From Rhizobium sp. Q54 (GTDB lineage: Bacteria > Pseudomonadota > Alphaproteobacteria > UBA828): a stretch of 64,000 nucleotides of DNA. Below the pieces are notes generated by a model. The model saw nothing but the letters and a program-made list of their open reading frames with translations. It was not told where the DNA came from and searched no databases. A program made the position numbers and the translations under genes. Positions 1 through 42,939 of this stretch are shown piece by piece. Where the stretch lies: the NCBI GenBank assembly GCA_945902735.1, contig CAMDNF010000002.1, positions 1,400 through 65,399 on the forward strand, in the 5' to 3' direction. Each line of letters starts with the position of its first letter. The stretch's first letter is position 1.

Positions 1-177
1 CTCGGCCCGGTGTTGCTGCCGCCGATCCATGACTGGTTGGAAAGCTGGGAGGCGACTGGCGTGGTTTTCGGCGGCATCACGGCGCTCGGCATGGTTGGCG
101 CGGTGGCGCTCAAGCTCGTGACCAAACGAATCCGCGCCGCCGAATCCGCGCTGGCTCACACCATCAGTCGATAGCCG
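1..177 (+). CDS. 3' fragment of an upstream gene running off the window edge (hypothetical membrane protein C-terminus)
   Basis: Frame 1 is open from base 1 to TAG at 175-177 (…GVVFGGITALGMVGAVALKLVTKRIRAAESALAHTISR*). It overlaps the response-regulator gene on the opposite strand by ~20 nt. Too short to judge. Confidence 0.25.
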
Positions 178-845
178 CCACCATCGGTGATCAAGAGCTG
201 AGCGTTCGACGGATCGGTCTCGATCTTTTGGCGCAGGCGATAAATATGCGTTTCGAGCGTGTGCGTCGCGACTTGCGGGTTATAGCCCCACACCTCGTGG
301 AGTAGCACGTCGCGCGGCACGATTTGATCCTTGGCGCGATAAAGAAATTTTAGGATCGCGCTTTCTTTTTCAGTCAAGCGGACCTTGTCCTTGCCGTCGG
401 TGCTGACCAAAATTTTGGCGGCGGGGCGAAAGCTATAGCGACCGATCGTGAAGGTCGCGTCTTCGCTGCGCTCGAATTGGCGCAATTGGGCGCGAATGCG
501 GGCGAGCAAAACGCCGAGCTTAAACGGCTTCGGTACATAGTCATTGGCGCCTGAATCGAGACCGAGGATCGTGTCGGCCTCGCTGTCGGCCCCGGTCAAC
601 ATGAGCACCGGCACTTTGACGCCACTACGGCGAAGCAATTTGCAGAGCTCCCGCCCATCCATATCGGGCAGACCGACATCGAGGATGATCAGATCGAAAC
701 GTTGTTTCTTGACGGCGTCGAGCGCGGCGGCGCCGGTCACCGCCTCGACCACCACAAACTCCTCATGGAGCCGCAGCTGTTCAGCGAGCGCCTGACGCAG
801 CGCATCGTCATCATCCACTAGCAGGATGGTCTGGCCCGTGCTCAT
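156..845 (-). CDS. OmpR-family two-component response regulator (receiver + winged-helix DNA-binding domain; CenR-like)
   Basis: ORF 156..953; the plausible ATG is at 845 (MSTGQTILLVDDDDALRQ…). Receiver motifs LLVDDD / ILDVGLPDMDG / KPF, and a C-terminal winged helix (…LTEKESAILKFLYRA…HTLETHIYRLRQKIE…GGYRL). Confidence 0.85.
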   Translation of the reverse strand: MSTGQTILLVDDDDALRQALAEQLRLHEEFVVVEAVTGAAALDAVKKQRFDLIILDVGLPDMDGRELCKLLRRSGVKVPVLMLTGADSEADTILGLDSGANDYVPKPFKLGVLLARIRAQLRQFERSEDATFTIGRYSFRPAAKILVSTDGKDKVRLTEKESAILKFLYRAKDQIVPRDVLLHEVWGYNPQVATHTLETHIYRLRQKIETDPSNAQLLITDGGGYRLMV

Positions 846-934
846 ACTCGCTCGACTGTTCGTTGATCCTTGAATCGACGCGGAATAATGCGCCAAGCAC
901 AACCATCTGCAAAGCCGCCTGGCGGGCAACGCCC

Positions 935-1543
935 ATGACCAGATGGATAGCACCTACGACACTCGAGGGACGTTTTGTCACGCTTGAGGTGCTAAAGCTG
1001 GCCCATAGCGCCGAATTGCGCCCCTTGGTTGGCGATTCGCGCATTTTTGCCTATTTGTCGGTCGATCTTGGCGCGCCGGGCGCGCTCGACCGCTGGGTCG
1101 ATCAGGCGCTGGAGGCCATGGCGAGCGGCGATCAGCTTGTTTTCGTCAAACGACAGCACGCGACGGGGCAGTTGGTTGGCTCGACCCGCTATATGAACGT
1201 CGTGACGCAACATCGCCGCGTCGAAATCGGTTGGACCTGGCTTACCCCTTCGGCCTGGGGCGGCCCGATCAATACCGAGGCCAAGCTTCTCTTGCTATCC
1301 CATGCCTTTGAGGCTTTGGGGGCGCACCGGGTCGAATTCCGCACCGATTCGCGCAACTTACAAAGCCAAGCCGCGATCGCGGCGCTCGGCGCGACCAGAG
1401 AGGGCGTTTTTCGGCGCCATATGGTGGTGAAGGATGGTTATGTGCGGGATACCGTCCAATTCGCGATTGTCGACCAAGATTGGTCCAACATTCGGCCTCG
1501 CCTCGAGGCTCGTTTGGCCACCAAGGCACTCAAGCCGGCATGA
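935..1543 (+). CDS. GNAT-family N-acetyltransferase
   Basis: ORF 863..1543, internal ATG at 935. Acetyl-CoA-binding-like segment …RVEIGWTWLTPSAWGGPINTEAKLLLL…; diverges from the response-regulator gene. Confidence 0.6.
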   Translation: MTRWIAPTTLEGRFVTLEVLKLAHSAELRPLVGDSRIFAYLSVDLGAPGALDRWVDQALEAMASGDQLVFVKRQHATGQLVGSTRYMNVVTQHRRVEIGWTWLTPSAWGGPINTEAKLLLLSHAFEALGAHRVEFRTDSRNLQSQAAIAALGATREGVFRRHMVVKDGYVRDTVQFAIVDQDWSNIRPRLEARLATKALKPA

Positions 1544-1655
1544 ATCCACCGGCAGGATCTGCCGCAGGCACCGCGTTAACAATATAACGCATTGAAAATA
1601 TTGATAGATTTCTTGGCCTCGAACTTGCATTTAAGAGGGTCGAGGGACCTTCCGT

Positions 1656-2672
1656 ATGGCATTTGATCCAATTGAGCTGATGGGGCCGCGTGAGCGGCTC
1701 GCTTACAACATCAATATGCGACCCCGCGCGGCGGCCGACGGCGCCGCGGTGCCCCCGCCTTCGCATCACGCCAAGCCAAGTGGCGAGAATTATTTCGGCG
1801 AAGACGGTCTCCAGTTCAGCGATTTGGTCGATATTCTCAATCCACTGCAGCATTTGCCGCTGATCTCGATGGCCTATCGCTCGATCACGGGCGACGAGAT
1901 ATCGGCAGGGGCGCGCGTGGTTGGCGGCGCCATCTATGGTGGCGGCGTTGGCGTCTTTGTGGGGGCGATCGAAGCCGCTATTGCCGAAGCCTCGGGCGGC
2001 AAGGATCTTGGTGCCATCGCCTTGGATGCCGTAACCGGCTCCGATAAAACTGAAACCGCGAGTTCGGCCAGCGAACACAAGGAAGCGTCGATAACCGCGC
2101 TGAACGATATCATGCCCGCGGCCGGTGGTGGCGAGACGGCTCCCACGGCGCCTTCATGGATCTATAGAGATGCGCCCTTGGCGCCACTCGCGCCGGAGCC
2201 CGCGCCAACACCGGCATTGGCGAGCCCGGCAATTCAACAAAGTGCGGCGCCTTTGCTTCCGATAGGGCCGATGCCGATCCCGAGCACACCGGAATCCCAA
2301 TTGGATTCGATGCCGGAGCTCTCCCAGGATCAAATCTCGCTCTTGCTGCAATCGGTCGGCCTTGATCCCAAAACCGGCGCTTCAATGCCGAATTCAGCCA
2401 CCGCCCCCCGCTCCGACGGCCGCCATAGCGCCGCAAATACCGACGGCGCATTCGAACACACCGCCCGCCCGCGAGACTGTGCGTTTTGGGCTCGGCCCGA
2501 TGAAGCAAAACGACGTGCGTCCTCCCCCGGCGATCGATCGCGCCTATCCCACGCCGGTGGCACAGACGACACAAGCGCCCGAGACACCGGCGGTCATGAC
2601 CGCGACCACCGAGAACGATGGCGACCTCTCCGCCGCGATGGCGAGCGCCCTCGACAAATACAGACGTGGTAA
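1656..2672 (+). CDS. Pro/Ala-rich hypothetical protein; the 3' part is probably mis-framed and continues in frame +1 to 2727
   Basis: Long ORF whose N-terminus looks protein-like (hydrophobic GG-rich segment) and whose middle is Pro/Ala-rich and low-complexity. After ~2400 this frame looks nonsensical, whereas overlapping ORF 2362..2727 continues the Pro-rich character. Confidence 0.4.
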   Translation: MAFDPIELMGPRERLAYNINMRPRAAADGAAVPPPSHHAKPSGENYFGEDGLQFSDLVDILNPLQHLPLISMAYRSITGDEISAGARVVGGAIYGGGVGVFVGAIEAAIAEASGGKDLGAIALDAVTGSDKTETASSASEHKEASITALNDIMPAAGGGETAPTAPSWIYRDAPLAPLAPEPAPTPALASPAIQQSAAPLLPIGPMPIPSTPESQLDSMPELSQDQISLLLQSVGLDPKTGASMPNSATAPRSDGRHSAANTDGAFEHTARPRDCAFWARPDEAKRRASSPGDRSRLSHAGGTDDTSARDTGGHDRDHRERWRPLRRDGERPRQIQTW

Positions 2673-2713
2673 AGTGATGGAGCAGTCTGGCGAAGTGAAG
2701 GGTTCCCGCTTCA

Positions 2714-3265
2714 ATGGCGCTTACTGATCCGTCGACCAGCGCGACCACGCCCACCCCTATCGATCTCGTCGTCGTTCCGCCCGATATTCTGCACTGGCAG
2801 GACCGGTCGTTCGCTTGCGTGCTCGGCCGCTCGGGCATTCGCGCCGATAAGGTCGAGGGCGACGGCGCGACGCCAAGCGGTTCGTTCGCGTTACGCCGCG
2901 TGCTCTATCGGCCAGATCGGCTGCCGCCGCCGCGCACCGCGCTGCCGGTCGCCGCGCTCAACCCGCATGATGGCTGGTGCGATGACCCTGATGATTTGCT
3001 CTACAACCAACACATAAGGCTGCCATTTTCAGCGCGTCACGAAATTCTGTGGCGCGATGACGGGGTCTATGACGTGATCGTGATTCTCGGGCACAATGAC
3101 GCGCCTGTGGTGCCCCACAAGGGCAGCGCGATCTTCATGCACGTCGCAACCCCAGATCGTACGCCAACGGAAGGGTGCATCGCGCTGGCGCGCCAAGATC
3201 TACTGACGATTCTTGAGACGTGCGACCCGCGCGCACGTCTGATTATTCCGGCGCCACGCTCATAG
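2714..3265 (+). CDS. L,D-transpeptidase catalytic-domain (YkuD/ErfK-like) protein
   Basis: Catalytic-site pattern …GSAIFMHVATPDRTPTEGCIAL… (His … x-G-C) and the DGATPSGSF motif. Confidence 0.7.
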   Translation: MALTDPSTSATTPTPIDLVVVPPDILHWQDRSFACVLGRSGIRADKVEGDGATPSGSFALRRVLYRPDRLPPPRTALPVAALNPHDGWCDDPDDLLYNQHIRLPFSARHEILWRDDGVYDVIVILGHNDAPVVPHKGSAIFMHVATPDRTPTEGCIALARQDLLTILETCDPRARLIIPAPRS

Positions 3266-3958
3266 AGGATGTCGTGCACCGAAGATCGCGGTGCCTACCC
3301 TGACATGCGTCGCGCCGAAGCCGATCGCGATTTCAAAATCCGCCGTCATGCCCATGCTGAGAGAGGGCAAACCATGTCGACGCCCGAGCTCGCGCAGCAA
3401 GGCAAAATGCGGCGCGGGCTCGTCACCGACCGGCGGGATGCACATCAAGCCAATCACTGGTAGCGCCAGGCGTTTTCGACAATCCTCGATGAAGGCGGCG
3501 GCATCGCGCGGGCCGACGCCAGATTTTTGTGGCTCCTCGCCGATGTTGATCTGCACGAATAATTTGGGGCAGCGCTGGCTGCGATCGCGCTCGGCGGCGA
3601 TTGCTTCGGCAAGCTTCGGTCGGTCGAGCGCGTGGATGAACTCAGCGTTCGCAACGGCCTCCCGCACCTTGTTGGTTTGCAGCGGCCCGATCAGATGGAG
3701 CTCGAGATCGGCATGGCGTTCGCGAAGGGCCGGCCATTTCGCGAGCAATTCTTGCACGCGGTTTTCACCAAAAGCGCGCTGCCCGGCGTCGATGGCCGGC
3801 ACAATGCGTTCGACCGGAATCGTTTTCGAAACCGCGATCAAGGAGACGGAATTGGGCCGTCGACCGGTTTCAGCACAAGCCGCCGCAATGCGCGCGCGCA
3901 CCGCGGCCAAGGCCTCGGGCACCGGCGTCTCAATCAAGTTCATCGCGGCGTCGACCAT
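3260..3958 (-). CDS. yggS: YggS-family pyridoxal-phosphate homeostasis protein
   Basis: …SLIAVSKTIPVERI…FGENRVQEL…LIGPLQTNKV…LFVQINIGEE…LSMGMTADFEIAIGFGATHVRVGTAIFG. ATG at 3958 (MVDAAMNLIE). Confidence 0.85.
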   Translation of the reverse strand: MVDAAMNLIETPVPEALAAVRARIAAACAETGRRPNSVSLIAVSKTIPVERIVPAIDAGQRAFGENRVQELLAKWPALRERHADLELHLIGPLQTNKVREAVANAEFIHALDRPKLAEAIAAERDRSQRCPKLFVQINIGEEPQKSGVGPRDAAAFIEDCRKRLALPVIGLMCIPPVGDEPAPHFALLRELGRRHGLPSLSMGMTADFEIAIGFGATHVRVGTAIFGARHPL

Positions 3959-3960
3959 CG

Positions 3961-4599
3961 GTGTATCCTGATCTAATGAGGGGAACGACGCTAGCAAGCC
4001 TGGCCCAAGAGCTCAATTCACGCCACGTGGCACGCACCGAACGCGGGCGTGTTTTGCCGCCGCTTCTACTCATGACCGACGAGGCCCGCTTGCCAGACCC
4101 GTGCGCCGCCGCCGACCGCCTACCGGCGGGGGCCGGGATTATCTTACGCGCCTATGAGGGGCCCGCGCTCAGGCGCTTGGCCTACGCCCTTGCCGAGATC
4201 GCGCGGCAACGGAGGCTCGTGCTCTTGATTGCGCGCGATGCCGAATTGGCCGCGGAAGTGGGGGCCAATGGGGTGCATTTGCCGGAGGCCCTGGCTCACC
4301 TTGGGGCCGCTATGCGGCGCCGCGCCGATTGGTTGATCACCTGCGCCGCCCATTCGCTCCCCGCGCTGCATATGGCCGCCCGTGTCGGCGCCGATGCCGC
4401 GCTGCTCTCGCCGGTCTTCCCGACCGCGAGCCACCCCGATCGGCCAGCCTTGGGACCACATTATTTTGCCGCGCTCGTGGGACGCGCGGGCCTCCCGGTA
4501 TACGCCTTGGGCGGGATTAGCGAGACCAATGCGCCGCTGTTGCTGGCCAGTGGCGCGGTCGGCCTTGCGGGGATCAGCGGGTTTTCAGCGGGCGCTTAG
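3961..4599 (+). CDS. Thiamine-phosphate synthase (ThiE/TenI-family) protein
   Basis: TMP-TENI-like motifs …[10 protein letters not shown]…[12 protein letters not shown]…PVYALGGI…; the start is uncertain (GTG at 3961 or ATG at 3976). Confidence 0.6.
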
Positions 4600-6483
4600 C
4601 CCGAAATGTTTTTCGACATGAGCAACCAACGCAGCCACGCTCGCCTCGATCGATTGCGTGGCGGTGTCGATCACGAGATCAGGTTTGTCGGGCGGCTCAT
4701 AGGGGGCCGAGATGCCGGTAAACTCGCGAATTTCACCGGTACGCGCGCGGCGGTAAAGCCCCTTCGGGTCGCGCGTTTCGCACACGTTGAGCGGCGCATT
4801 GATGTAGATTTCGTGATACGCGCTTTGGTCGATACGCTCGGCCGCCGCGCGGGCCCGTTCGCGATCGGCGCGATAGGGTGAGATGAAGGCGGAAATTACC
4901 AACATGCCGGCATCGGCAAACAGCGCGGCAACTTCGCCGACGCGTCGGATGTTTTCTGCCCGGTCCTCGGGCGCGAAACCGAGATTGGCATTGAGGCCTG
5001 CGCGAACATTATCGCCATCCAGCACATAAACTTGATAGCCGCGACGGAACAATTCAGCCTCGACCTCGATCGCGATGGTCGATTTGCCGGCGCCTGAAAG
5101 CCCGGTGAGCCAGATGACGCCACCTTTGTGCGTGTTGCGTCGCGCGCGCTCGGTTCGACCGATGCGATGGCCGACCGCTTGAATATTGCTCGAGCGATCG
5201 GTAATCAGCGCGCGTTGATCGGGATAACCCTCCATGTTGATCTGGCCGCCGCCGGCGATGTCATCACCATCAACGAGCACGAAGCGGCCGGTGCGGGGCA
5301 AAGCGAGGTAGGTGTCGAAGGCCAGCATGGCCGGGCTTCTGAGCACAACCTCGGCAATGCCATTGCGCTCGACAAAGCCCGGCGGTTCGCTTGGAACGCC
5401 ATTTGCTTCAAGCACATCAATGTCAATCACGCGTTCGATCGACTGCACTTCAACCGGCACTTCGCGCGTGGCGAGTCGAAGCTTGTAGCGTCTGCCTGCT
5501 TCAAGCGGCGAGCGGCCGAGCCAAAAAATTGTCGCGCGGAACACATTGCTTTCGATCGGCGGGTGCGCGGCATGACTGGCGAGCCCACCGCGCTCGATGA
5601 AGAGTTGCTCGTCGAGTTGAATGCCGATCGATTCACCGGCCTCCGCATGATCCCGCGCCGGCGCATGCCAACGTTCGATGCTTGTTACACGCGCGGTTTT
5701 GTTCGATGGCGAAAAAAGCAGCGTGTCACCTTTTGCCAGACGCCCGCTTTCAATGCGGCCGACGAGAATGCGCCGCTCGTCAAAATGATAGACATCTTGA
5801 ATTGGAAAGCGGAGCGGCGCATCGGGCTGCAATGCAATCGATGTTAGGGCATCGAGTGCTTGAATGAGCGTTGGGCCCTTGTACCAAGGCGTCGCGGCCG
5901 AGCGCGCGATGAGATTGTCGCCGCCGCGCGCCGAGGTCGGCACGATTTGGGCTACATGCAGACCAAGCAATTTCAAATAAGCCGCGATCTCGTCGCCAAC
6001 CGCGCGAAACCGCGCCTCATCGAAGTTGATGAGATCTATTTTGTTGATCGCGACAATGACCTGATTGACGCCGATCAGACTCAGCAGATAGCCGTGACGG
6101 CGCGATTGCTCGCGCACGCCCTCCTTGGCGTCGATGACCAAAAGCGCGGCATCGGCGCTCGAGGCGCCGCTGACCATGTTCTTGATGAATTCCCGATGAC
6201 CGGGCGCATCGACCACGACATAGCGTCGCGCGGGCGAGGCGAACCAGACATGCGCGGCATCGATCGTGATGGTTTGATCGCGTTCGGCTTGAAAGGCATC
6301 GAGCGCGAAGGCCCATTCGAACGGCATGCCGCGCTTCTCGCTCATGGCTCGAATGGCCTCGAGCTTGCCCTCGGGCAGGGCCCCGGTATCGGCAAGAAGG
6401 CGGCCGAGCAACGACGATTTGCCATGATCGACATGGCCGACGATGACGAGCCGGAAAGGAGGTTTTGTTGGCGATGCGCTCAT
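4585..6483 (-). CDS. cysNC: Bifunctional sulfate adenylyltransferase subunit 1 / adenylylsulfate (APS) kinase (CysN/CysC fusion, NodQ-like)
   Basis: N-terminal GTPase ([25 protein letters not shown]) and a C-terminal APS-kinase P-loop ([11 protein letters not shown]…YVLDGDNVR). ATG at 6483 overlaps the cysD stop. Confidence 0.9.
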
Positions 6484-6490
6484 GGCGGAG

Positions 6491-7288
6491 TCACATATAA
6501 CCTTCGGCGCGCAGGCGCTCGAACGAATCTTCCGCCTCATGATCCATGGCGCGGCCAGCGCGTTCGGCGGTGCGGATGGTTTCTAGCTCGGTGATGATTT
6601 CATCGATCGACGCGGCGTTGCTGGCGATTGGATTGGTGATATCGGAGTCGCCAAGCGAGCGATAACGCTTGCCGCCGCGCGCGAGATAGAGCGGCACGAT
6701 GGGGATATTTTCACGCTTGGTGTAGCGCCAGATATCGAGCTCGGTCCAATGCAGCAAGGGGTGGATGCGGACATGGACGCCGGGCGGCATGTTGGCCTTG
6801 TAATAATCCCAGAATTCGGGCGGTTGATCGCGAAAATCCCATTGGCCTGATTCAGCGCGTGGGCTGAAGACGCGCTCCTTGGCGCGCGTCGATTCCTCAT
6901 CGCGCCGGATGCCGGCGAAGATGCCGGTGAATTTGTGTTCGCTGAGTACGGCCTTGAGACCATGGGTTTTGCGCGCGGCGGCGCGCGCGGCGGGCGGCAG
7001 GCTTTGGTCGACCGTTTCAATCGGCGGGCAGCCGCCAATGAGGAGCTTAAGACCCCATTCGCCGGCATAGCGGTCGCGGAAGTCATACATCTCGGGAAAT
7101 TTTTTGCCGGTGTCGACATGAATGACCGGAAACGGCACGGGGCCCAGGAACGCCTTGCGGCAGAGCCAGACCATGACGTTCGAATCCTTGCCGAGCGACC
7201 AGAGCAGGCCGGGCCGTTCAATCCGCGCATAGGCCTCGCGGATGATGAAGAGGCTTTGGCTTTCAAGTTGGTCAAGATGGTCGAGCAT
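6491..7288 (-). CDS. cysD: Sulfate adenylyltransferase subunit 2 (CysD/NodP)
   Basis: PAPS-reductase-fold motifs [11 protein letters not shown]…[21 protein letters not shown]…[15 protein letters not shown]…WTELDIWRY. Confidence 0.9.
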
Positions 7289-7296
7289 GACGCTGA

Positions 7297-8133
7297 TTAT
7301 CGACCTTCAGGCAGATAGTTGAAGCGTTTCATTTGCTCGCGGTGGCGTTTTACCAGGCGGTCGATTTGCGCGGCGGATAATTTCTCTCGCCATTCGCCCG
7401 ACTTGCCGGACCGGAAGAAACGATCTTGCACCGGCGTGCGCTCGACAAAGCCGGTTTTTTCCTCCTGCCCGCGTAGGGCGTCGAACGAAGAGAAGCGGAT
7501 AGCTTTTTCGAGACGCGCTTGATCGGGCGGCACGCCGAGAAATTGCGCAATGGCACCGAAATACCGCGCGGGGTCGGCTTGGAGATCTTCATAGCGTACC
7601 ACGTAAAGGGCCGGGCTTGGCGTTTGTGTCCAGCTTTTCACATGGGTCGACCAATCGCTTTGGTGTTCGGGTACGTGGGTTGCGCTCGCCGGCGTTTCAA
7701 ACCCGACGCGGCCCATGAGTTCGATGATGTCGTCAAACGAAACACCGAGATGATGTGCATAAGACAACGCGACATCGAGCGGGTTGCGCACGACATAGAT
7801 CGCGCCGGCGGTGAGCTCGAGCGTAATCATGCTTACACCCGCGACCGCGATTAGCGCGTTGTGGGTTTTTACCATGACGGTGTTGGGCGAACTTTCAGCG
7901 ATCAGACGATGCACGTGCGGGCGGAGCCTGGTGAGATCGGCGAGTGAGAGTGCCGTTGGGGGCCGCGGGTCGAGACGGGCATACCAATGCGCTTGCGAAT
8001 CACCGACCGTGAGTGCCGACATGCGATTGATCTCAAACGGCGCATCGGGATTCGACAGCAGATTATGAAGAAACGCGCGGACCCAGGTGTTGCCCGATTT
8101 CGGATAGGACGCGAGCCAAAGAAGATTAGCCAC
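7297..8133 (-). CDS. PAPS-dependent sulfotransferase (Sulfotransfer_1, StaL/Teg-like)
   Basis: 5'-PSB motif LWLASYPKSGNTW and 3'-PB motif VVRNPLDVALS. ORF 7297..8226, but the GTG at 8133 is the likely start because upstream sequence overlaps the paralog ending at 8139. Confidence 0.8.
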   Translation of the reverse strand: MANLLWLASYPKSGNTWVRAFLHNLLSNPDAPFEINRMSALTVGDSQAHWYARLDPRPPTALSLADLTRLRPHVHRLIAESSPNTVMVKTHNALIAVAGVSMITLELTAGAIYVVRNPLDVALSYAHHLGVSFDDIIELMGRVGFETPASATHVPEHQSDWSTHVKSWTQTPSPALYVVRYEDLQADPARYFGAIAQFLGVPPDQARLEKAIRFSSFDALRGQEEKTGFVERTPVQDRFFRSGKSGEWREKLSAAQIDRLVKRHREQMKRFNYLPEGR

Positions 8134-8138
8134 GGGGT

Positions 8139-9005
8139 CTAAATTCGGTAGCCGAATCTGGCCATCTGCGCGCCATGGCGGCCGACAATCTGCGCGGCCT
8201 GAGCCGGGGTTAGTACATCGCGCCAACCGTCCGCTTTGCCTTGGCGAAAAACTCTCTTCTGCGCCACTGTGCGCTCACGAAAATCTTCCTCAGCCTCTTG
8301 ACGGCTTAGTTGATCGAACGACGAAAACTCGATCGCTTTCATGAGTCGTTCCCGCGGCGGATCGAGCCCAAGGAAACGGCATAGAGCCCCGAATGCCTCA
8401 ACAGGCTGGGCCATCAAATCTTCGTACCGGACGACATGGAGGCCTGGGTGACTCACCTTGGTCCAACTATCGACATGGAGCGACCAGCTGCCGCGATATT
8501 CGTAAATGAACTTCTCGGTGTTCTCGGTCTGAACGTTTTGACCCAGTCGCATAATCGCTTCATCGATCGACATGCCGCTATGATCGGCATAGGAAATGAC
8601 CACGTCGAGGGGATAGCGCACGACGTAAATTGCCACGCCGGTATGCTCCATCGTAATCAAAGGCGTGCCGCGGTCGACAATAAGGGCGTTGTGGGTCTTA
8701 ACGAAAACGGAATCAGGATAAGTTCGCGTCAGCCTTTCATGAATTAAGGGGCGCAATTTCGCGATTTCATCCTTTGAAAGACTGTCTGCGCGTCGAACCG
8801 ACAATTTTTGATCGGATTCGTCAGCTTCCGCGCGGCTATCCAACACAGCCTGACACCAATCCGCATTCGAATCTTGGTGACAGAAGCGCACAAGGTTATT
8901 CAGCGGCACTGGCCGCTCTGGGTTCATGAAAAGATTGTGCAAGAACGCACGGAGCCACGTATTGCCGGATTTCGGATAGCTCGCGAGCCAAAGAATTTTT
9001 CCCAT
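8139..9005 (-). CDS. PAPS-dependent sulfotransferase (Sulfotransfer_1, StaL/Teg-like), tandem paralog
   Basis: Begins MGKILWLASYPKSGNTWLRAFLHNL; 3'-PB-like VVRYPLDVVIS. Same strand as, and directly upstream of, the first sulfotransferase, cysD and cysNC. Confidence 0.8.
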   Translation of the reverse strand: MGKILWLASYPKSGNTWLRAFLHNLFMNPERPVPLNNLVRFCHQDSNADWCQAVLDSRAEADESDQKLSVRRADSLSKDEIAKLRPLIHERLTRTYPDSVFVKTHNALIVDRGTPLITMEHTGVAIYVVRYPLDVVISYADHSGMSIDEAIMRLGQNVQTENTEKFIYEYRGSWSLHVDSWTKVSHPGLHVVRYEDLMAQPVEAFGALCRFLGLDPPRERLMKAIEFSSFDQLSRQEAEEDFRERTVAQKRVFRQGKADGWRDVLTPAQAAQIVGRHGAQMARFGYRI

Positions 9006-9121
9006 GACGTGTACGTTAGCAAATGACCCTTCTTAGGAGGAAAGATTCAGACAGGGAAAACCAAGGCGGTAAAAGGCAATAGAGCGCTTTCAAAGTTGGT
9101 TGAATCAGTCCAACTAACGTC

Positions 9122-9272
9122 GTCATTCCGGCCGCTAGGCGAGCCCGAAAGCCAACGGCTTTCGGACGCGAGCCCCCGATCCAGTCGGGGGCAGGCTCTT
9201 GAGAGCCGGAATCCATGATTGAGCGGCATGAGATCACGTCACGATGGATACCCGCTTTCGCGGGCATGACGA
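9122..9272. repeat. REP/RIME-like mosaic palindromic element (GTCAT…CCGG-palindromes…ATCCATG type)
   Basis: Nested inverted repeats: cattccggc(9124)…gccggaatc(9215) enclose hairpins ccgaaagcc-aac-ggctttcgg and cccccga…tcggggg. A second unit gtcacgatggatacccgctttcgcgggcatgacg follows. Spurious ORFs (MPAKAGIH…, MDTRFRGHDE…) read through it. Confidence 0.5.
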
Positions 9273-9332
9273 AAAATGGGAAGTGCGTACAACCAAACTG
9301 AAAACGGCCTCGTCGAGCGAACGTGCTCTACG

Positions 9333-9368
9333 ACAAAAAAAGACGGGAGCGGCATTGCCGCTCCCGTC
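9333..9368 (-). terminator. Rho-independent terminator downstream of the porin gene
   Basis: Perfect 12-bp GC-rich stem gacgggagcggc-att-gccgctcccgtc (9342-9368), followed on the minus strand by a T7 run (A-run 9335-9341 on the plus strand). It lies 23 nt past the porin stop. Confidence 0.65.
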
Positions 9369-9390
9369 CTCAAGAAACAAGACCTTGCGA

Positions 9391-10548
9391 TTAGAACGAC
9401 AGGGACGAGCCGATCATGAAGCTCGTGTAAACGTTGTCCAACGCGCCAGCCGTCTCATTTTCGAAATCGCCATGGTCGATCTGCGCCTGAATGCTCACGC
9501 CCGGCCCAAGGATATAGGTGCCGTTGAGCGCCATGATATCAAACGCCAGATCGTCGACTGCCGCCACGGTCGCTCCTTCGATCTCGGCCCGGCCATATTG
9601 AATGCCGATGCCCCACATGGCGTCCCAATAGGCCACGCCGATATCGAAGTCCTTACGATCACGACCGGGGCCAACTAGGCCTGTCACCGGCGTTGCATTG
9701 GCGACCAGGTCAGCATCGAGATAGCCGCCGCCGACTGAGAACTTCCCGAATGTGAGCGTGCCACCCACATTAAACGAGGCGGGCGAGTCTTCGCAATTAA
9801 CTACCGTGGGCGTCGCACCGCAACGATCGAGGTTGTAGGTCTCGTAACCAGCGGAGGCGCGGAGCTTAACGGCGCCGAAATCGTGATCAAACGCCGCGGC
9901 GACCGACAGCTGGTCGAGCAGCTGGCCGTTCACTTCGCGAGCGTTGGCACCATATTGGCTCTGGCCCTGATCTGACGGCGCATAACTCGCCGCGAAGCTG
10001 ACGCCACCGAATGAAGGCGAGAAATACACGATCTTCTGCGAATCTTCCGAGCCCAAACCATCGTTATAGGTGCGGACGTTGTAGATGTTTGAGCCGTTGC
10101 CCGGATTGCCGAAGATGAAGAACGGCGTGTTGACACCGAAAATGCCCGAGCCGCCCGGCGCCCATGAGATGAACTCTTGGCGCGCGCTCTCGGTTGCACC
10201 AACGCGGATTTGACCGAAATTGCCGCGGAAGAACACGAAGCGTTCGTCCATCGATTCGGAGTCGTCGCCGGTGGGGTTGCCTTCGATCACGGCCTTGAAG
10301 CCCGCGGTCAGGCCGTTATCGAACGTGGCGCTGCCGCCAATGTTGATTTCGACGTCTTGGCCCATCGCGCTTGAATTGAAGTTATTGGCGTATTCGTTAT
10401 CATTGCTCTGTTGGTCGATGATCGCGAACGCGCTCTGATAATAGCCACCGACGCTGACCGCAATCGGCTCGTCTTTGGCCTGCGCGGTGCCACCGGCAAT
10501 CATGCCCGCCGCTACAAGTGCGGTCGAACCCAAAAGAATCTTCTTCAT
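9391..10548 (-). CDS. Outer-membrane porin (alphaproteobacterial Porin_2/RopA-like β-barrel)
   Basis: Signal peptide MKKILLGSTALVAAGMIAGGTAQA, a Gly/Asn/Ser/Tyr-rich β-strand composition, and a C-terminal …SSLSF aromatic terminus. Confidence 0.8.
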   Translation of the reverse strand: MKKILLGSTALVAAGMIAGGTAQAKDEPIAVSVGGYYQSAFAIIDQQSNDNEYANNFNSSAMGQDVEINIGGSATFDNGLTAGFKAVIEGNPTGDDSESMDERFVFFRGNFGQIRVGATESARQEFISWAPGGSGIFGVNTPFFIFGNPGNGSNIYNVRTYNDGLGSEDSQKIVYFSPSFGGVSFAASYAPSDQGQSQYGANAREVNGQLLDQLSVAAAFDHDFGAVKLRASAGYETYNLDRCGATPTVVNCEDSPASFNVGGTLTFGKFSVGGGYLDADLVANATPVTGLVGPGRDRKDFDIGVAYWDAMWGIGIQYGRAEIEGATVAAVDDLAFDIMALNGTYILGPGVSIQAQIDHGDFENETAGALDNVYTSFMIGSSLSF

Positions 10549-10829
10549 TAGCGAACCTCCTCGGGAGAATTGTGTTTACTCGGTTACGCCCAAAAACCCG
10601 AACTAAAGTGTCTTGATCTCGTTTCGGCCATTCCAGTCCAGGCTTGCAGCCGGGGCGCCACTGATGACGCGGCCCCTTCCCCCCAGTAACGCTGGAGGGC
10701 TTGCAACGGGGCGACGGTAACCAAAACCGGTTAACGAGCAAACCGTAAAAATGTGCTCGCGCTTACAATCCCGTGCCTATGTGGCAGAAAAGCCGCAATG
10801 TTGCGTGGTTGCGGTTTGTAACCAAAGGG

Positions 10830-12449
10830 TCATGGCGCGAGGGCGTTTTGGCCCTCAGGGCCAAGGGCCTCGATGAGCGCACCAAGATAGGGTCTGTAGC
10901 GGGCCGCGCGACCAATCGATTCGGCATGAAGCGGTTGGCGCACCTGGGTTGCGCTCGCGGTCGCAACCCGTCCTTTATTGCGGTGGAAATCGAGGCAAAC
11001 GGCGTCCCATTTCAGGCCGCAATGGGCCAGCAGGGCCCGGATTTCGCGTTCCGGGTGGGCGATCAGGGCTTCGTAGTGAACGTCGTAAACTCGGCCAGGA
11101 AGCACGGCCTGCCAGTGCCGCATGGTCTCGGCATAAAGGCGGTAGCGCCGGCCAAGCGCGGCGAGATCATAAGACCACGCATTCCCTTCGGCGAAGCGTG
11201 TGCGATAGCAAGAGAGGCAAATATCCAACGGGTTCCGCCGGCAATGGATGATGATCGCGTTCGGCAGAATCAAGTGAATTAACCCGATATAGCGGAAATT
11301 GTCGGGCATTTTGTCGACCACGCGAGACGCGGCCGGATCGGCCAGGCGTGATAAGTCGGCCGCATAGGCCTCCCCTCGCTCGAATGCTGTGCTGCCGATC
11401 GTCAAGTCGATGCCCGTGGGCCCAATCCAACCTTCGAGGCAACGGCCAAGCACCTTAAGTTCGCCGGCACCCACAACTTCTGGGTGTGCCGCCAGAATTT
11501 GCTCTATCAATGTGGTGCCGGAGCGCGGCATGCCGACCACAAAAATCGGCCGGGTGGAGGGGCAGCCCTCGGCCGCTCGACCGAGAATTTCAGGCATCAA
11601 GGCCGCCTTGATGGCGTCAATCAACGCGATTTCCACCACCTCATCATAGGGATGACGGGCGTGTTGAAGCGCCGCGCCATCGGCAAAATGGGTTATGGCC
11701 TGCGCGGGATCGTCGAGGTCGTCGTAGATTTTGCCGAGGGCAAAAGCGAGCTCGATTCGGGCTGGCGGCGGAAGATCGGCCCGGCGCGACTCCACCGTCC
11801 GCACCAGGCCAAGGAGCGCATCATCGAGTCGAAAACGATGCACATTCGCCAGATTGGCGAACGCCGCGCTCGAGCGAGGATCAAGCTCGAGAGCCTGTCG
11901 AAAAGCATTTTCGGCGCCCGCAATATCCCCAAGTTCGCGCAGCACGACCCCGAGACCGTTGTGACTATCGCTGTGCTTGGGGCGAAAACGGATGGCCGTG
12001 CGATAGGCGGCGGCTGCTTCCTGGGCCCGGCCCAAACGGCGCAGCGTATTTGCCAGATTATATTGCGCCGCAGCGAAATTCGGCTTCGACGCCAAGGCCG
12101 ACGCAAAATAATGCACCGCATCCGCGTCACGCCCCAAATCGACCAGAGCACATCCCAGGTTGAACGCGGCTTCGACCAATTTGGGGTCACGGTCGAATGC
12201 TTCCCGATAGGCGGTGATGGCGTCTTCATGGCGGCCGAGGCCCTGGAAGGCCGCACCGAAATTGAGCCAGAGACGGGAATCGGTCGGATCGGCCGCAAGC
12301 AGGGCCTGGTAGCGCGGGATTACGGCTTGCAACGCGCCCTCGGCGTGGAGAGCCAGAACGGCCGCAATATCTCGCTTGCGCGCCGAGGTGGTCGTTCCGA
12401 GCCTTGTCTCGCTCTTGCCAGGCCGTTGGCCCGACCTATTTGTCGGCAT
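10830..12449 (-). CDS. TPR-repeat protein fused to a PAPS-dependent sulfotransferase domain (Sulfotransfer_3-like)
   Basis: N-terminal TPR repeats (…AITAYREAFDRDPKLVEAAFNLGCAL…AAAQYNLANTL…). C-terminal sulfotransferase motifs: 5'-PSB FVVGMPRSGTTL and 3'-PB CRRNPLDICLS. Confidence 0.8.
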   Translation of the reverse strand: MPTNRSGQRPGKSETRLGTTTSARKRDIAAVLALHAEGALQAVIPRYQALLAADPTDSRLWLNFGAAFQGLGRHEDAITAYREAFDRDPKLVEAAFNLGCALVDLGRDADAVHYFASALASKPNFAAAQYNLANTLRRLGRAQEAAAAYRTAIRFRPKHSDSHNGLGVVLRELGDIAGAENAFRQALELDPRSSAAFANLANVHRFRLDDALLGLVRTVESRRADLPPPARIELAFALGKIYDDLDDPAQAITHFADGAALQHARHPYDEVVEIALIDAIKAALMPEILGRAAEGCPSTRPIFVVGMPRSGTTLIEQILAAHPEVVGAGELKVLGRCLEGWIGPTGIDLTIGSTAFERGEAYAADLSRLADPAASRVVDKMPDNFRYIGLIHLILPNAIIIHCRRNPLDICLSCYRTRFAEGNAWSYDLAALGRRYRLYAETMRHWQAVLPGRVYDVHYEALIAHPEREIRALLAHCGLKWDAVCLDFHRNKGRVATASATQVRQPLHAESIGRAARYRPYLGALIEALGPEGQNALAP

Positions 12450-12625
12450 ATCGATCGACTCTATCTAGCCGTGTCATGGACACCCTAGAACCCATGCTGA
12501 CTGCGACGCAATCACGCGGCGGTTTTCCCACAGGGCGGTATATTGTAGAGTTATAGGCATGGAAAAGGCGGTCTCGCCGCAATCGGCGCGCCGCCTAATG
12601 ACGATCAGCTCAGGATAATGTCGCG

Positions 12626-13186
12626 ATGGTCTCTTGGATTGGCGGCCTTAGGGCGGCGCGGACTTGGCTTATTGCGTTGAGCGGCGTAGCGCTGCTCGCC
12701 GCGTGCGGCGATGCCGACCTCGCCGGCACCGCCGGGCCGGACCCCAAATATTCCGACAATAAGAAGGCCCGCGATCCGGTCTATAAGCAGAGCGTCTTTG
12801 GCGAAGGCGGGCTTAGCCTCGGTGGATCTTCCGGGCCGGTCGGCCAAGAGGGCGCGACGGGGCTAGGCGTCAATACGTTCCTCTGGCGCGCCACGTTGGA
12901 CACGCTGTCTTTCATGCCGCTTGCCTCGGCCGATCCGTTTGGCGGGGTCATCATCACCGATTGGTACGCCCCACCCGATGCCCCCGAAGAGCGCTTCAAG
13001 GCGACCGCCTATATTCTCGACCGCACTTTAAGGTCTGACGGGATCAGGGTGGCGCTTTTCCGGCAGGTTCGCGGTTCGGCCGGCGATTGGATCGATGCGG
13101 CGACCAACCCCCGCACCTCGACCGACCTCGAAGAGAAAATTCTGGAGCGGGCGCGGCAGCTCAAAATCTCCAGCGTCGGCGAATAG
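12626..13186 (+). CDS. Lipoprotein (DUF3576-like, conserved upstream of leuS in alphaproteobacteria)
   Basis: Lipobox LLAACG after a signal sequence. Confidence 0.55.
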   Translation: MVSWIGGLRAARTWLIALSGVALLAACGDADLAGTAGPDPKYSDNKKARDPVYKQSVFGEGGLSLGGSSGPVGQEGATGLGVNTFLWRATLDTLSFMPLASADPFGGVIITDWYAPPDAPEERFKATAYILDRTLRSDGIRVALFRQVRGSAGDWIDAATNPRTSTDLEEKILERARQLKISSVGE

Positions 13187-13234
13187 TCGAGCGCGCTTGC
13201 CGCGCGCGCGGCCGTGCGGTAGGAACCGGCGGCC

Positions 13235-15802
13235 ATGAGCGAGCGATATAATCCGCGCGAAATCGAGGCGAGTTGGCAGGCCTTCTGGGAACAGGAGGGT
13301 CTGTTCCATGCGCGCGAGGACGACAGCCGTCCAAAATATTACGTGCTCGAGATGTTTCCCTATCCGTCGGGACGCATCCACATGGGCCATGTGCGCAATT
13401 ACACGTTGGGCGATGTGGTGGCCCGCTATAAGCGGGCGCTCGGCTTTAATGTGCTGCACCCGATGGGGTGGGATGCCTTCGGCCTGCCGGCGGAGAATGC
13501 CGCGCGCGATCAAAAGACCCACCCGGCAACCTGGACCTACGCCAATATCGCGACGATGCGCGCCGAGCTCAAGCGCATGGGGCTCTCGCTCGATTGGAGT
13601 CGCGAGATTGCGACGTGCCATCCGGGCTATTACAAGCACGAACAAAAGCTGTTCCTCGATTTCCTCAAGGCTGGGTTGGTCTATCGCAAGGAATCCTTCG
13701 TCAATTGGGACCCGGTCGACCACACCGTGCTCGCCAATGAGCAGGTGATCGAGGGGCGCGGCTGGCGCTCGGGCGCGTTGGTCGAACGGCGCAAATTGTC
13801 GCAATGGTTTCTCAAGATCACGGCCTTCTCCGACGATCTATTGGCCGCGTTGAACGGGCTCGAACGCTGGCCCGAGCGCGTGCGCCTGATGCAGGAAAAT
13901 TGGATCAATCGATCCGAGGGCCTGCGCGTGGCGTTCGACCTCGATGCCCGCGACGAGACGATCGAAATTTTCACGACGCGCCATGACACGCTATTTGGTG
14001 CAAGCTTCCTCGCGCTTTCACCCAATCATCCGTTTGCCGAAAAGCTTGCCGCGAAGGATGCCGCACTCGCGTCTTTTATTGCCGAATGCAATCGGCTCGG
14101 CACGTCGGAAGCCGCGATCGAGCATGCCGAAAAGAAGGGTTATGATACCGGGCTGAAGGTGCGCCACCCGTTGATGCCGGGCCGGCTATTGCCGCTCTAT
14201 GTCGCCAATTTCGTGTTGATGGATTATGGCACGGGCGCGATTTTCGGCTGTCCGGCGCATGACCAGCGCGACCTCGATTTCGCGCGCAAATATAAACTCG
14301 ACGTGATTCCCGTCGTGGCGCCACCGGGCAGCGATCCGAGCGCGGTTACGATCGGCGATGAGGCCTATGTCGGCGAGGGCGTTCATATCAATTCGGGCTT
14401 TATCGACGGCACGAGCGTCGCCGACGGCAAAGAACGCGTCGCGGCGAAACTCGAAGGCGAGCGCCGCGCGAAGCGCGAAGTATTGTTTCGCCTGCGCGAT
14501 TGGGGCGTCTCGCGCCAACGCTATTGGGGCTGCCCGATCCCGATCGTGCATTGCGGTGCTTGCGGCATCGTGCCCGTCGCCGAGACCGATTTGCCGGTGA
14601 TCCTGCCGGAGGATGTGAGCTTCGATCGGCCGGGCAATCCGCTCGATCATCACCCGCGCTGGAAACATGTGGCCTGCCCATCATGCGGCAAGCCGGCGAC
14701 GCGCGAGACCGATACGTTCGACACCTTCGTCGATTCGTCGTGGTACTTCGCGCGCTTCTGTTCGCCGCGCGCCGATCAACCGGTGGTGCAAAGCGCGGTC
14801 GATTATTGGTTGCCGGTCGATCAATATATCGGCGGCATCGAGCATGCGATTTTGCATTTGCTCTATTCGCGCTTCTTCACGCGCGCCATGCGATTGACCG
14901 GGCATGTCAAACTCGACGAACCGTTCGATGGTTTGTTCACCCAGGGCATGGTGTGTCACGAATCCTATCAGAGCGAAGACGGCAAATGGCTTTATCCGGA
15001 GGACGTGACGAAACGCGATGATGGCAGCGCGGTGCAAACCGAGACCGGGCGACCGGTCAAGGTGGGGCGGCGCGAAGTGATGAGCAAATCGAAGAAAAAT
15101 GTGGTGGCGCCGTCGGTCATCATCGATGGCTATGGCGCCGATACCGCGCGGCTTTTCATGCTCTCCGACAGCCCGCCGGAACGCGATCTCGATTGGTCGG
15201 ATGCCGGCGTCAAAGGGGCGTGGCGTTATCTGGGTTCGCTCTGGCGCATGGTCGCGCTACCCGCGGTCGCCTTGCCGCCGCCCGATATGGCGATCGTCGA
15301 TGGTCTCGACCCGCGGCTAAATGAGGTTCGACGCTTGGTTCATCGCACCATCGTGGGCGTGACCGGCGATCTCGATCGCTTTCATTTCAATCGCGCGGTC
15401 GCGCGCGTTCGCGAATTGACCAATGGTCTGCTCGAAATGCCGACCGATGCGGCGGGGGCGGGGAGCGTGCTGCGCGAGGGCCTGGAGATTGTCACGCGCT
15501 TGATCGGGCCGATGACGCCGCACATCGCCGAATCATTGTGGCGTATGCTGGGTCATTCGGAGTCTTTGGCGTTGGTGCCTTGGCCGAAAGCCGATGAGGC
15601 GCTTGTCGCGGCCGAGACCGTGACGCTCGCGGTGCAAGTGAACGGTAAATTGCGCGCCACGATCATGTTGCCGAAGACGCATGAGAAAAAGGAAGCGGAA
15701 GATGCGGCGATCGCCTCAGCCCAGGTACAACGCGCGATTGAGGGCCGCCCGATTAAGCGGGTCATCGTCGTGCCAGGGAAGATCGTCAATGTGGTGGTCT
15801 GA
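13235..15802 (+). CDS. leuS: Leucine--tRNA ligase
   Basis: 855 aa with the HIGH motif ([15 protein letters not shown]) and KMSKS (VMSKSKKN); typical LeuS N-terminus [15 protein letters not shown]. Confidence 0.95.
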
Positions 15803-33407: not shown

Positions 33408-33816
33408 ACCGAGCCAATTTGTCGGTGCATAGTGGGTTTAGGGTTCGCCCTTCTTCTACTTCTAACTAGATTCTTAGGAAAGGATGATGTTGTAGATGGT
33501 GGCCTCGAATACGGTGATCCCCGCAATGGGTGAAAAGATGCAGGTTTGTGGACCTGAAACGCCATGCGATGCCAGAATGAGGACAATAGATAGGACCTAA
33601 TCTGAAGAGGCTTGGTGAGTGTGGCGTTTGGGTGCAAGGAATTATGGGGACTGATTATAGGATTCAAAGACGATGCCCGTGATTCACCCTGTCCAAACGA
33701 TCCTGCTCCGGATCTCTAACCCGGTACATGAAAGGACATGAACCTGCGGATAACTCGGCCCATGATTTCACCCCCATGGTCATCGGGCTCTTATCCACAG
33801 ACATTGTTCAGTTCCT
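33408..33816. other. oriC: Candidate chromosomal replication origin (oriC) between hemE and the DUF299/PSRP gene
   Basis: The only long non-coding gap (~410 bp) in the hem/maf/dnaQ neighbourhood. GC is markedly below flanks (AT-rich block 33430-33480). Perfect DnaA box TTATCCACA at 33791-33799, one-mismatch box TTATCCGCA on the reverse strand at 33745-33753, and three GANTC sites. The conserved hemE-oriC-DUF299 arrangement is described for alphaproteobacteria. Confidence 0.55.
33791..33799 (+). promoter_or_regulatory. Consensus DnaA box TTATCCACA
   Basis: Exact 9-mer match, 18 nt upstream of the DUF299 gene start, inside the AT-rich gap. Confidence 0.5.
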
Positions 33817-40672: not shown

Positions 40673-41491
40673 ATGACCGAGAAAAAGCCCCGTGTCGGGC
40701 TGTTCGTCACCTGCCTCGTGGATCTGTTTCGCCCGAGCGTCGGTTTCGCCGCCGTCACGCTGATCGAGCGCGCCGGCTGCACGGTCGAGGTGCCCGAGGC
40801 GCAAACCTGCTGCGGCCAGCCGGCCTATAATTCGGGCGCGCGCCAGCACACGAAGGATATCGCCCGCCAGGTTATCGCGCTGTTCGAGGGTTATGACTAT
40901 GTGGTCGCGCCGTCCGGCAGTTGCGGCGGCATGATCAAGGCGCATTACCCCGATCTGTTCTCCGACGAGCCGTCATGGCACGCGCGCGCGGAGAAACTCG
41001 CGGCCAAAACCCATGAGCTGATCTCGTTCCTGGTCGATGTGCGCGGCATGAAAACGGTCGAGGCGCGCTTCGATGGCGCGGTCACCTACCATGATTCATG
41101 CTCAGGGCTGCGCGAGCTCAACGTTCACGCCCAACCGCGTAAGTTACTGGCGAGCGTCACCGGCCTCGCGCTGAAAGAATTGCCCGGCGCGCACATCTGC
41201 TGCGGCTTTGGCGGCACGTTTTGTATCAAATATCCTGAAATCTCGACTCGCATGGTGTCGGACAAGACCGCCGATATCGCCGCGACCGGCGCCGGCACGG
41301 TGCTTGCGGGTGATCTCGGCTGTTTGATGAACATGGCCGGGCGCTTGAGCCGCGAGGGCCGGCCGATCAAGGCGCGCCATGTCGCCGAAGTGCTGGCCGG
41401 CATGGGCGACCGTCCCGCGATCGGCGAGCCGGTTGTTCCTAATTCGCCGCATAAGCGGCGCGGCGCGGTCGCGCCGGCCAAATCTCGATGA
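40673..41491 (+). CDS. lutA: Lactate utilization protein A (Fe-S oxidoreductase, CCG domains)
   Basis: Duplicated Cys-rich CCG motifs (…VGLFVTCLVD…TCCGQPAYNSG… / …YHDSCSGLRELN…CCGFGG…). Confidence 0.8.
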   Translation: MTEKKPRVGLFVTCLVDLFRPSVGFAAVTLIERAGCTVEVPEAQTCCGQPAYNSGARQHTKDIARQVIALFEGYDYVVAPSGSCGGMIKAHYPDLFSDEPSWHARAEKLAAKTHELISFLVDVRGMKTVEARFDGAVTYHDSCSGLRELNVHAQPRKLLASVTGLALKELPGAHICCGFGGTFCIKYPEISTRMVSDKTADIAATGAGTVLAGDLGCLMNMAGRLSREGRPIKARHVAEVLAGMGDRPAIGEPVVPNSPHKRRGAVAPAKSR

Positions 41492-41537
41492 GTCAGGCTC
41501 ATCGAGATTTGGTGTAGGACCATACACGCACGCCGCC

Positions 41538-42938: not shown

Positions 42939-42939
42939 G

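Follow-up and report, generated by a model that had tools for sequence, protein, structure and literature searches.

Which molecule receives sulfate from a bacterium that carries, within a few kilobases of its chromosome, genes to activate sulfate and several genes to transfer it? This is the question raised by a locus of Rhizobium sp. Q54, contained in the stretch of 64,000 nucleotides analysed here (contig CAMDNF010000002.1, positions 1,400 to 65,399), to which we refer as the window. This stretch comes from a 75.6-kb metagenomic contig (ENA ERZ27280224 k141_2287887), and our view of the genome is limited to that contig. Six co-oriented genes on its minus strand form the locus: two encode sulfotransferases of the SULT/Teg12 type (ST-A and ST-B), two encode CysD and a CysN-CysC fusion (CysNC), predicted to make the sulfate donor 3'-phosphoadenosine 5'-phosphosulfate (PAPS), one encodes a porin and one a tetratricopeptide repeat (TPR) protein fused to a further sulfotransferase domain (TPR-ST). 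The reading that we favour, with moderate confidence, is that of a chromosomal sulfation island, in which a PAPS-making operon with two SULT/Teg12-type enzymes lies beside a porin and TPR-ST, and the acceptor is directed to the cell envelope.

The six genes had been named in a preliminary description of this DNA. ORF (open reading frame) listing and translation recovered all of them at the same coordinates, and an independent gene caller applied to the source contig returned the identical six genes with identical starts. The sulfotransferase motifs quoted in that description were all found in the translations, and profile searches, suggested there as a check and run against Pfam and NCBIfam, back every family named. 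Read from the DNA, the junctions ST-B/ST-A, ST-A/cysD and cysD/cysNC measure 5, 8 and 7 nt, respectively. Because the gaps are so short, ST-B, ST-A, cysD and cysNC are predicted to form a single operon, as had been proposed. The junctions had been described as short or overlapping; short they are, but none overlaps when cysNC starts at 6483, and this start is supported by homolog alignments that begin at residues 2-12 of the 632-aa CysNC. Likewise, the porin and TPR-ST genes had been placed about 1.8 kb upstream of the operon. Both are present, but the 3' end of the porin gene is just 386 nt from ST-B. A terminator with a 15-bp stem (9371-9339) stands directly 3' of the porin gene, between it and ST-B, and the porin would therefore be made from a separate transcript outside the sulfotransferase operon.

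ST-A and ST-B both match Sulfotransfer_1 (PF00685, cutoff 22), with E-values of 3.5e-30 (105.7 bits) and 1.3e-25 (90.7 bits), respectively. They share 47% identity, differ by a 14-aa insertion in ST-B and belong to separate subclades. Their closest solved relatives by sequence are Teg12 (5.6e-17 for ST-A), Teg14, the cytosolic SULT1 family and StaL. Residues K12-S13-G14-N15-T16-W17, H91 (of KTH), R116...S124 and R241/G243 are invariant in an alignment of 19 sequences, and this set aligns to Teg12 as the motifs PKSGNTW, KTH, RNPLDV..S and RxGxxGxW. In published structures of SULTs and Teg12, these residues make up the 5'-phosphosulfate loop, the catalytic histidine, the 3'-phosphate motif and a loop near the C-terminus (RxGxxGxW). 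The AlphaFold (AF2) model of ST-A, which was modelled alone, has a pLDDT of 90.6, and its top match in a Foldseek search against the PDB is the ternary complex of Teg12 (3mgb; E 2.9e-13, TM 0.67), followed by Teg14, StaL and SULT1E1. Teg12 is thus the best match both by sequence and by fold, which bears out the earlier assignment to the StaL/Teg type; ST-A and ST-B are predicted to be SULT/Teg12/StaL-type enzymes with PAPS-dependent activity. Since the PAPS loop begins at residue 9, both are expected to be cytoplasmic and to lack a signal peptide. The SULT-like family is large, with 1,318 representatives (50% identity clusters) at E<=1e-30 and 3,329 at E<=1e-10.

TPR-ST combines a Sulfotransfer_3 domain (3.6e-45) with TPR repeats that resemble the substrate-binding TPR superhelix of O-GlcNAc transferase (OGT). 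At E<=1e-3, its catalytic domain has solved relatives only among the protein tyrosine sulfotransferases (TPSTs; 6.9e-11 to 1e-8), and its PRSGTTL, aligned Glu, DKMP and RRNPLDICLS occupy the positions of PRSGTTL, GEE, NKDP and RDGRAVVHS in TPSTs. The preliminary description had reported the TPR-sulfotransferase fusion and the porin, both of which were found as described; it missed that the catalytic domain appears to be specifically TPST-like. Between 4 and 13 kb of the window, we found no context of the RaxST type, that is, no precursor peptide and no type I secretion or peptidase transporter.

The donor side of the pathway is represented by CysNC and CysD. CysNC contains GTP_EFTU (4.9e-42), GTP-eEF1A_C and APS_kinase (2.9e-65) domains, the last named after adenosine 5'-phosphosulfate (APS). 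Against NCBIfam, it is borderline for CysN (TIGR02034, 339.2 with a cutoff of 336.1), above the cutoff for apsK (242.8, cutoff 138.7) and under the cutoff of the bifunctional model PRK05506 (595.5, cutoff 715). CysD matches PAPS_reduct (7.9e-38) and the subfamily model NF003587 (345.9, cutoff 195), with sub-cutoff scores for the CysD equivalog models. It aligns to Pseudomonas syringae CysD (1ZUN_A) at 2e-66, lacks residues ~232-265 of that chain and has the PP-loop SLGKDS. In CysNC, the GTPase motifs G1, G3 and G4, the APS-kinase P-loop and the DGD motif (LDGDNVR) are all intact, in keeping with the PAPS-forming fusion proposed earlier. Together, the two proteins are predicted to act as a GTP-driven ATP sulfurylase and a kinase that turn sulfate into PAPS. 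The label nodPQ-like, which had also been applied to the pair, is too specific: G1 reads GHVDHGKS, and the CysN part scores 260 bits against P. syringae CysN but 291 bits against archaeal EF-1alpha.

A scan of one genome per species yielded 80 loci with relatives of ST-A, mostly from Alphaproteobacteria (Rhodospirillales, Parvibaculum, Kiloniella, Sneathiella, Acidiphilium, Pelagibius), with some from Gammaproteobacteria. When the window proteins were mapped onto these loci, a common backbone emerged, in which a variable island is flanked by gidB-parAB-holA-lptE-leuS-DUF3576 on one side and by thiE-like-yggS-ykuD on the other, the thiE-like gene being the right-hand border kept in relatives. 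The porin of the window belongs to Porin_4 (1.8e-34), and of the 31 non-window loci with DUF3576, 29 have a Porin_4 gene within the island; 13 of them have two to four sulfotransferases and nine have a TPR-ST. A same-strand porin stands immediately upstream of 32 of the 79 sulfotransferase runs with at least 1.6 kb of upstream sequence, at distances of 7-945 nt, mostly 100-250 nt. Porin-sulfotransferase units were duplicated together in L005, L036, L040 and L044, and L009, L010 and L031 have the genes in a rearranged order. For the reciprocal test, four porin homologs were picked solely for lying on long contigs. Three of them occupy the same slot, two with sulfotransferases: L090 carries there a porin, TPR-ST, a sulfotransferase, an 868-aa TPR-methyltransferase and then an ST-A ortholog, and L092 three porins and one sulfotransferase. 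The slot of L093 (JGI 3300082978, 1.48-Mb contig, 1-8850) holds three TPR-GT41 (OGT-like) genes, two 2-oxoglutarate (2OG)-Fe(II) oxygenase genes and no sulfotransferase gene. The fourth homolog (L091) is a 30%-identical porin at another location, without a sulfotransferase. The reciprocal test therefore identifies the porin as the anchor of a variable island that gathers cytoplasmic modifying enzymes, many of them TPR-fused. The conserved core, found in many Alphaproteobacteria between leuS-DUF3576 and the thiE-like gene, consists of a porin followed by one to four sulfotransferases; TPR-fused enzymes (sulfotransferase, methyltransferase or OGT-like) are added in some genomes, and cysD-cysNC is a clade-specific addition restricted to the closest relatives of the window. 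This porin-sulfotransferase unit and its fixed chromosomal slot had been overlooked in the preliminary description. Our literature search returned nothing relevant on porin-sulfotransferase modules or on modules of TonB-dependent receptors and TPR-sulfotransferases.

Some further features of the islands were noted. Most of the island porins (that of the window and 54 homologs) start, after the signal peptide, with a short acidic motif that precedes the first strand, e.g. A|(A/E/S)(D/E)(E/D)P(I/L). A gene for a YkuD L,D-transpeptidase (window 2714-3265) is a conserved neighbour of the island. With this acidic N-terminal motif and the YkuD neighbour, the island porins may be akin to the peptidoglycan-anchored porins of Rhizobiales. 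The slot of L093 also holds a 248-aa protein without Pfam match.

Among the loci with cysD-cysNC, an ST-A ortholog is found directly upstream of the pair in L004, L006, L007, L011, L034 and L086. L087 carries beside its sulfotransferase a 444-aa gene (8904-10238) with CysN domains II-III and an intact APS kinase, devoid of the G domain and not accompanied by cysD, which looks like a decayed or streamlined PAPS-supply gene. In L012 and L028, similarly, a cysNC-like gene is present but cysD is not. Such apparent remnants argue that selection keeps PAPS formation beside the sulfotransferase, and the kinase-only relatives lend some support to a role in PAPS supply. The preliminary description went further and took the cysNC fusion as a pointer to a non-assimilatory role. 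However, the identical type of pair stands alone on three other alphaproteobacterial contigs (L094-L096), which were picked solely for lying on long contigs and encode a short CysD (264-265 aa) and a CysNC (621-625 aa) that are 63-70% identical to those of the window. In two of the three, the pair is followed by a cysQ-like (Inositol_P) gene. Because the short-CysD/CysNC pair also occurs alone, often with cysQ, the fusion gives no proof of a non-assimilatory role, and dedication of cysDNC to sulfation is plausible but unproven. The notion that divergence (short CysD, EF-1alpha-like CysN, sub-cutoff NCBIfam scores) marks a specialised paralog was dropped, the stand-alone type being alike. A neighbour-joining tree splits the CysNCs into two major clades, one with all nine whose contig also carries a sulfotransferase and one with the three that stand alone. 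This split is compatible with a specialised lineage and also with mere species phylogeny.

The alternative that survives best, and that we consider possible although not probable, is that cysD-cysNC is the sole sulfate-activating system of the cell and feeds cysteine synthesis by way of PAPS (or of APS, the kinase then being a side branch), and that the sulfotransferases merely share its operon. The stand-alone pairs speak for it, as does the cysQ-like gene that follows two of them, an arrangement expected of PAPS-based assimilation. Furthermore, a single cysDNC copy was seen on the 75.6-kb contig, and the window contains no cysH, cysI or cysJ that would tell the type of reductase. On the other hand, two sulfotransferases head the operon with the tight junctions described above, the window pair has no cysQ, and the sulfotransferase-linked CysNCs form a clade of their own. 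L087, L012 and L028 retain just the kinase-bearing part beside the sulfotransferase; since this part alone cannot activate sulfate, a second activation system is implied elsewhere in those genomes.

In the sulfation island as we favour it, CysD and the CysN-APS kinase would convert sulfate to PAPS, ST-A and ST-B would spend it as cytoplasmic O-sulfotransferases, and the operon would couple the supply of PAPS to its use. The acceptors would be hydroxyls, most plausibly phenolic or Tyr-like, and would belong to a peptide, a protein or some other molecule bound for the envelope, not to a classical secondary metabolite. The porin would be functionally linked to the enzymes: it would either let the substrate or the product through or be the target. 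In the case of Teg12 and StaL, the hydroxyls that receive sulfate are phenolic ones on peptides. Homologs of ST-A with ~35% identity are found in apparent lasso-peptide clusters, on pTM1 of Tistrella mobilis (L088, 6241-12732) and on a Thalassobaculum plasmid (L089, 2195-14358), together with genes for an HPr-like kinase, a nucleotidyltransferase, an asparagine-synthase-like cyclase, PqqD, B2 and an ABC exporter. This context suggests sulfated lasso peptides, and putative sulfotransferase genes within lasso clusters have been noted (PMC8498205). Bacterial TPST genes, for their part, are sparse, and frequently lie beside genes for extracytoplasmic proteins (Stewart & Ronald, PMC9372746). Taken together, the relationship to Teg12 and StaL, the lasso-cluster homologs, the TPST-like TPR-ST and the TPR-methyltransferase and OGT-like neighbours in sister loci favour an acceptor that is a peptide, a protein or otherwise directed to the envelope.

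Several points weigh against this interpretation. The island lacks any acceptor-related gene, be it for a precursor peptide, an exporter, a glycosyltransferase or an enzyme of lipids. A single ancestral slot is common to most of the porin-linked loci, and their counts do not represent independent events. The porin has its own terminator, and its adjacency to the operon could in part be inherited synteny, not function. The 54 island porins inspected have ordinary general-porin features, with no obvious Tyr/acidic sulfation motif. Finally, given that the same type of cysD-cysNC stands alone elsewhere, the window copy may be the housekeeping one.

A second alternative, which we regard as rather unlikely, is a small-molecule acceptor: like animal SULTs and BT_0416 of Bacteroides, the SULT-like enzymes would sulfate diffusible compounds, such as phenolics, sterol- or hopanoid-like lipids, signals or xenobiotics, and the porin would be the route of entry for the substrate or of exit for the sulfated product. 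Matches to SULT1/2, plant sulfotransferases (SOTs) and retinol dehydratase are nearly as good as those to Teg12, both by sequence and by fold, and the number of paralogs varies from 1 to 4, as in detoxification families. There is also a precedent of a PAPS cluster beside a steroid sulfotransferase (PMC9417993). In Gammaproteobacteria (Lysobacterales-like), a gene for a TonB-dependent receptor, an importer, heads a same-strand series of two to five TPR-Sulfotransfer_3 genes that ends with a SULT-like sulfotransferase gene (L055, 3496-10831; L057, L060, L063, L068, L071). However, such receptors are very numerous in the genomes of Lysobacterales, so their adjacency is weaker evidence and was given low weight. 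Moreover, no gene for an inner-membrane transporter, a regulator or catabolism lies in the window island, and the TPR-fused partners (TPST-like sulfotransferase, methyltransferase, GT41) suggest macromolecular substrates. Should the acceptor prove to be a common metabolite, the locus would be of interest mainly as a neat donor-supply operon.

It is unlikely that the acceptor is a glycan or lipid, namely lipopolysaccharide (LPS), capsule or an envelope glycolipid sulfated at the cytoplasmic face before export, with the porin linkage reflecting a shared function at the outer membrane. The envelope-related neighbours (lptE, the DUF3576 lipoprotein, the YkuD L,D-transpeptidase and the porin) would suit it, as would the stand-alone cysD-cysNC-cysQ of L096, which lies inside a NeuB/DegT glycan cluster, and LPS sulfation is established in Sinorhizobium meliloti (PMC12445080). 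Against it, the LPS sulfotransferase LpsS is a member of the Stf0 family (PMC12445080), whereas the window enzymes match Sulfotransfer_1 (PF00685) and Sulfotransfer_3 (PF13469) only, and the island has no glycosyltransferase or flippase. The match to NoeE is confined to 29 residues at the P-loop of TPR-ST (36.6 bits, cutoff 500), and the ST-A query found no nodH on symbiotic plasmids and no NodH-type match among plasmids at E<=1e-3; LpsS and NodH/NoeE were rejected as identities of the window enzymes.

Sulfation of the porin itself is speculation. In the most explicit form of this idea, which we think improbable, the cytoplasmic TPST-like (TPR-guided) and Teg12-like enzymes would, ahead of export, O-sulfate tyrosines in the neighbouring major porin or in a different Sec-exported protein. 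If this were true, the TPR-fused methyltransferases, OGT-like GT41 enzymes and 2OG oxygenases might play similar roles in sister genomes, and the outcome would be a variable surface charge, e.g. for tuned channel selectivity or for escape from porin-using phages. It would also be the first system for sulfation of a bacterial outer-membrane protein and would extend tyrosine sulfation beyond the single case of RaxX.

By analogy, the locus would work like NodPQ-NodH, RaxPQ-RaxST and BT_0411-BT_0416 of Bacteroides, where the donor is made where it is spent, but it appears to be a member of none of these systems. NodP/NodQ and NodH of S. meliloti offer the parallel of alphaproteobacterial CysD/CysN-APS kinase genes that feed PAPS to a neighbouring sulfotransferase. 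Unlike them, the window locus is neither symbiotic nor plasmid-borne, its sulfotransferases are of the SULT/Teg type, its CysN has the EF-1alpha-like G1, its CysD is short, and its type of pair is also found alone. RaxP/RaxQ and RaxST of Xanthomonas likewise combine PAPS supply with a cytoplasmic TPST-like sulfotransferase, which acts before export (PMC9372746, PMC6637879), the tyrosine-sulfated peptide of Xanthomonas being RaxX, and the catalytic domain of TPR-ST matches TPSTs only. By contrast, the locus has neither a raxX-like precursor nor type I secretion genes of RaxA/RaxB, RaxST lacks the OGT-like TPR array of TPR-ST, and raxPQ is unlinked to raxST, whereas cysDNC of the window is operonic with SULT-type enzymes. 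In BT_0411-BT_0416, putative PAPS-biosynthesis genes are immediately beside a cholesterol sulfotransferase (PMC9417993), an arrangement in a Gram-negative bacterium similar to ours, but in another phylum, with a sulfate importer, a host-sterol acceptor and no porin or TPR-ST partner. Teg12, Teg13, Teg14 and StaL have in common with ST-A and ST-B the PKxGNTW loop, the catalytic His of KTH and the 3'-phosphate motif RNPxD...S, although identity is only 18-24%. A glycopeptide tailoring cluster is ruled out for this Gram-negative, origin-proximal housekeeping DNA, in which the neighbours are the porin, cysDNC, leuS, lptE, parAB, rho and hem genes, with no nonribosomal peptide synthetase or cytochrome P450 gene. 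The sulfotransferases of the two lasso clusters belong to the same family, are alphaproteobacterial and align over their full length; nevertheless, a lasso or other ribosomally made, post-translationally modified peptide (RiPP) was rejected for the window, whose island has no cyclase, PqqD/B2, protease, exporter, HPr-like kinase or nucleotidyltransferase.

What is new here is the protein family and its setting, the linkage to a porin and the co-occurrence with TPST-like TPR enzymes. To our knowledge, few bacterial systems of PAPS-dependent sulfation have been described, namely those for Nod factors, RaxX, sulfolipids of mycobacteria, glycopeptide antibiotics and, in Bacteroides, sterols. The locus adds a large SULT-like family, tied in Alphaproteobacteria to a porin in a fixed origin-proximal slot, often with TPST-like TPR enzymes. 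The minimal island is present in cultured species, e.g. Parvibaculum indicum (DSM 25305, L029) and Kiloniella spongiae (L070), and what free-living bacteria sulfate is thus directly testable, as is the sulfation of proteins by them. The features of the island are listed in Table 1.

Table 1. Features of the sulfation island, with positions in the window
Feature	Coordinates	Strand	Support
cysNC: CysN-type GTPase and APS kinase fusion, 632 aa, last operon gene	4585..6483	-	Pfam, NCBIfam
cysD: small PP-loop subunit of ATP sulfurylase, short form, 265 aa	6491..7288	-	Pfam, NCBIfam
ST-A: SULT/Teg12-type PAPS-dependent sulfotransferase (predicted, cytoplasmic), 278 aa, GTG start at 8133	7297..8133	-	Sulfotransfer_1, AF2
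ST-B: second SULT/Teg12-type sulfotransferase (predicted), 288 aa, first operon gene	8139..9005	-	Sulfotransfer_1
Structured 333-nt spacer/leader upstream of ST-B	9006..9338	-	Folding
Intrinsic terminator of the porin gene (predicted)	9339..9371	-	15-bp stem, 10 G-C pairs, then T run
Porin_4-family outer-membrane porin, 385 aa, signal peptide, C-terminal Phe	9391..10548	-	Pfam
TPR-ST: N-terminal OGT-like TPR array and TPST-like sulfotransferase domain, 539 aa, no signal peptide	10830..12449	-	Sulfotransfer_3

The spacer between the porin gene and ST-B is strongly structured (minimum free energy -122.4 kcal/mol, z = -3.63) and contains several perfect hairpins on the minus strand, e.g. CCCGCGAAAGCGGG and CCCCCGACTGGATCGGGGG. 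An 83-aa ORF inside it (9016-9267) is probably spurious. The spacer probably holds the operon promoter and a putative palindromic repeat-like insertion, which turned up nowhere else in the window or the compared loci. An Rfam scan of 4000-13300 revealed no riboswitch or other known RNA, and matches to the sigma-70 consensus were no commoner than in shuffled sequence, with none upstream of ST-B on this strand. G+C content dips to 0.53-0.54 across 8001-9500, the ST-B region. At the opposite end of the operon, the 3' end of cysNC overlaps the convergent thiE-like TMP-TENI gene (3961-4599, plus strand) by 15 nt (4585-4599), and a terminator-like hairpin is present on the plus strand at 4589-4603, where the two genes converge.

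Outside the island, the window consists of origin-proximal housekeeping DNA, with parAB, gidAB, trmE, rho, hemE/H, holA, lptE, leuS, the his operon and hslUV. A PADLOC search for anti-phage defence families gave a generic TPR match only. An intergenic region of ~400 bp with lower G+C (33408-33816), upstream of hemE and of a divergent Kinase-PPPase gene, contains a perfect DnaA box, TTATCCACA, near 33791. It may be the chromosomal origin, parAB, gidAB, trmE and rho also being in the window; GC skew, however, has no clear switch. In the histidine operon, a 464-aa ORF without Pfam match (52448-53842, plus strand), also called as a gene on the source contig, is located between a hisF-like (His_biosynth) and a hisE-like (PRA-PH) gene. 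At ~41379-45017 on the plus strand, a LutC-like gene comes after two tandem LutB-like genes (LUD_dom and Fe-S domains; 466 and 468 aa), which look like a duplication in a cluster of the lactate-utilisation type.

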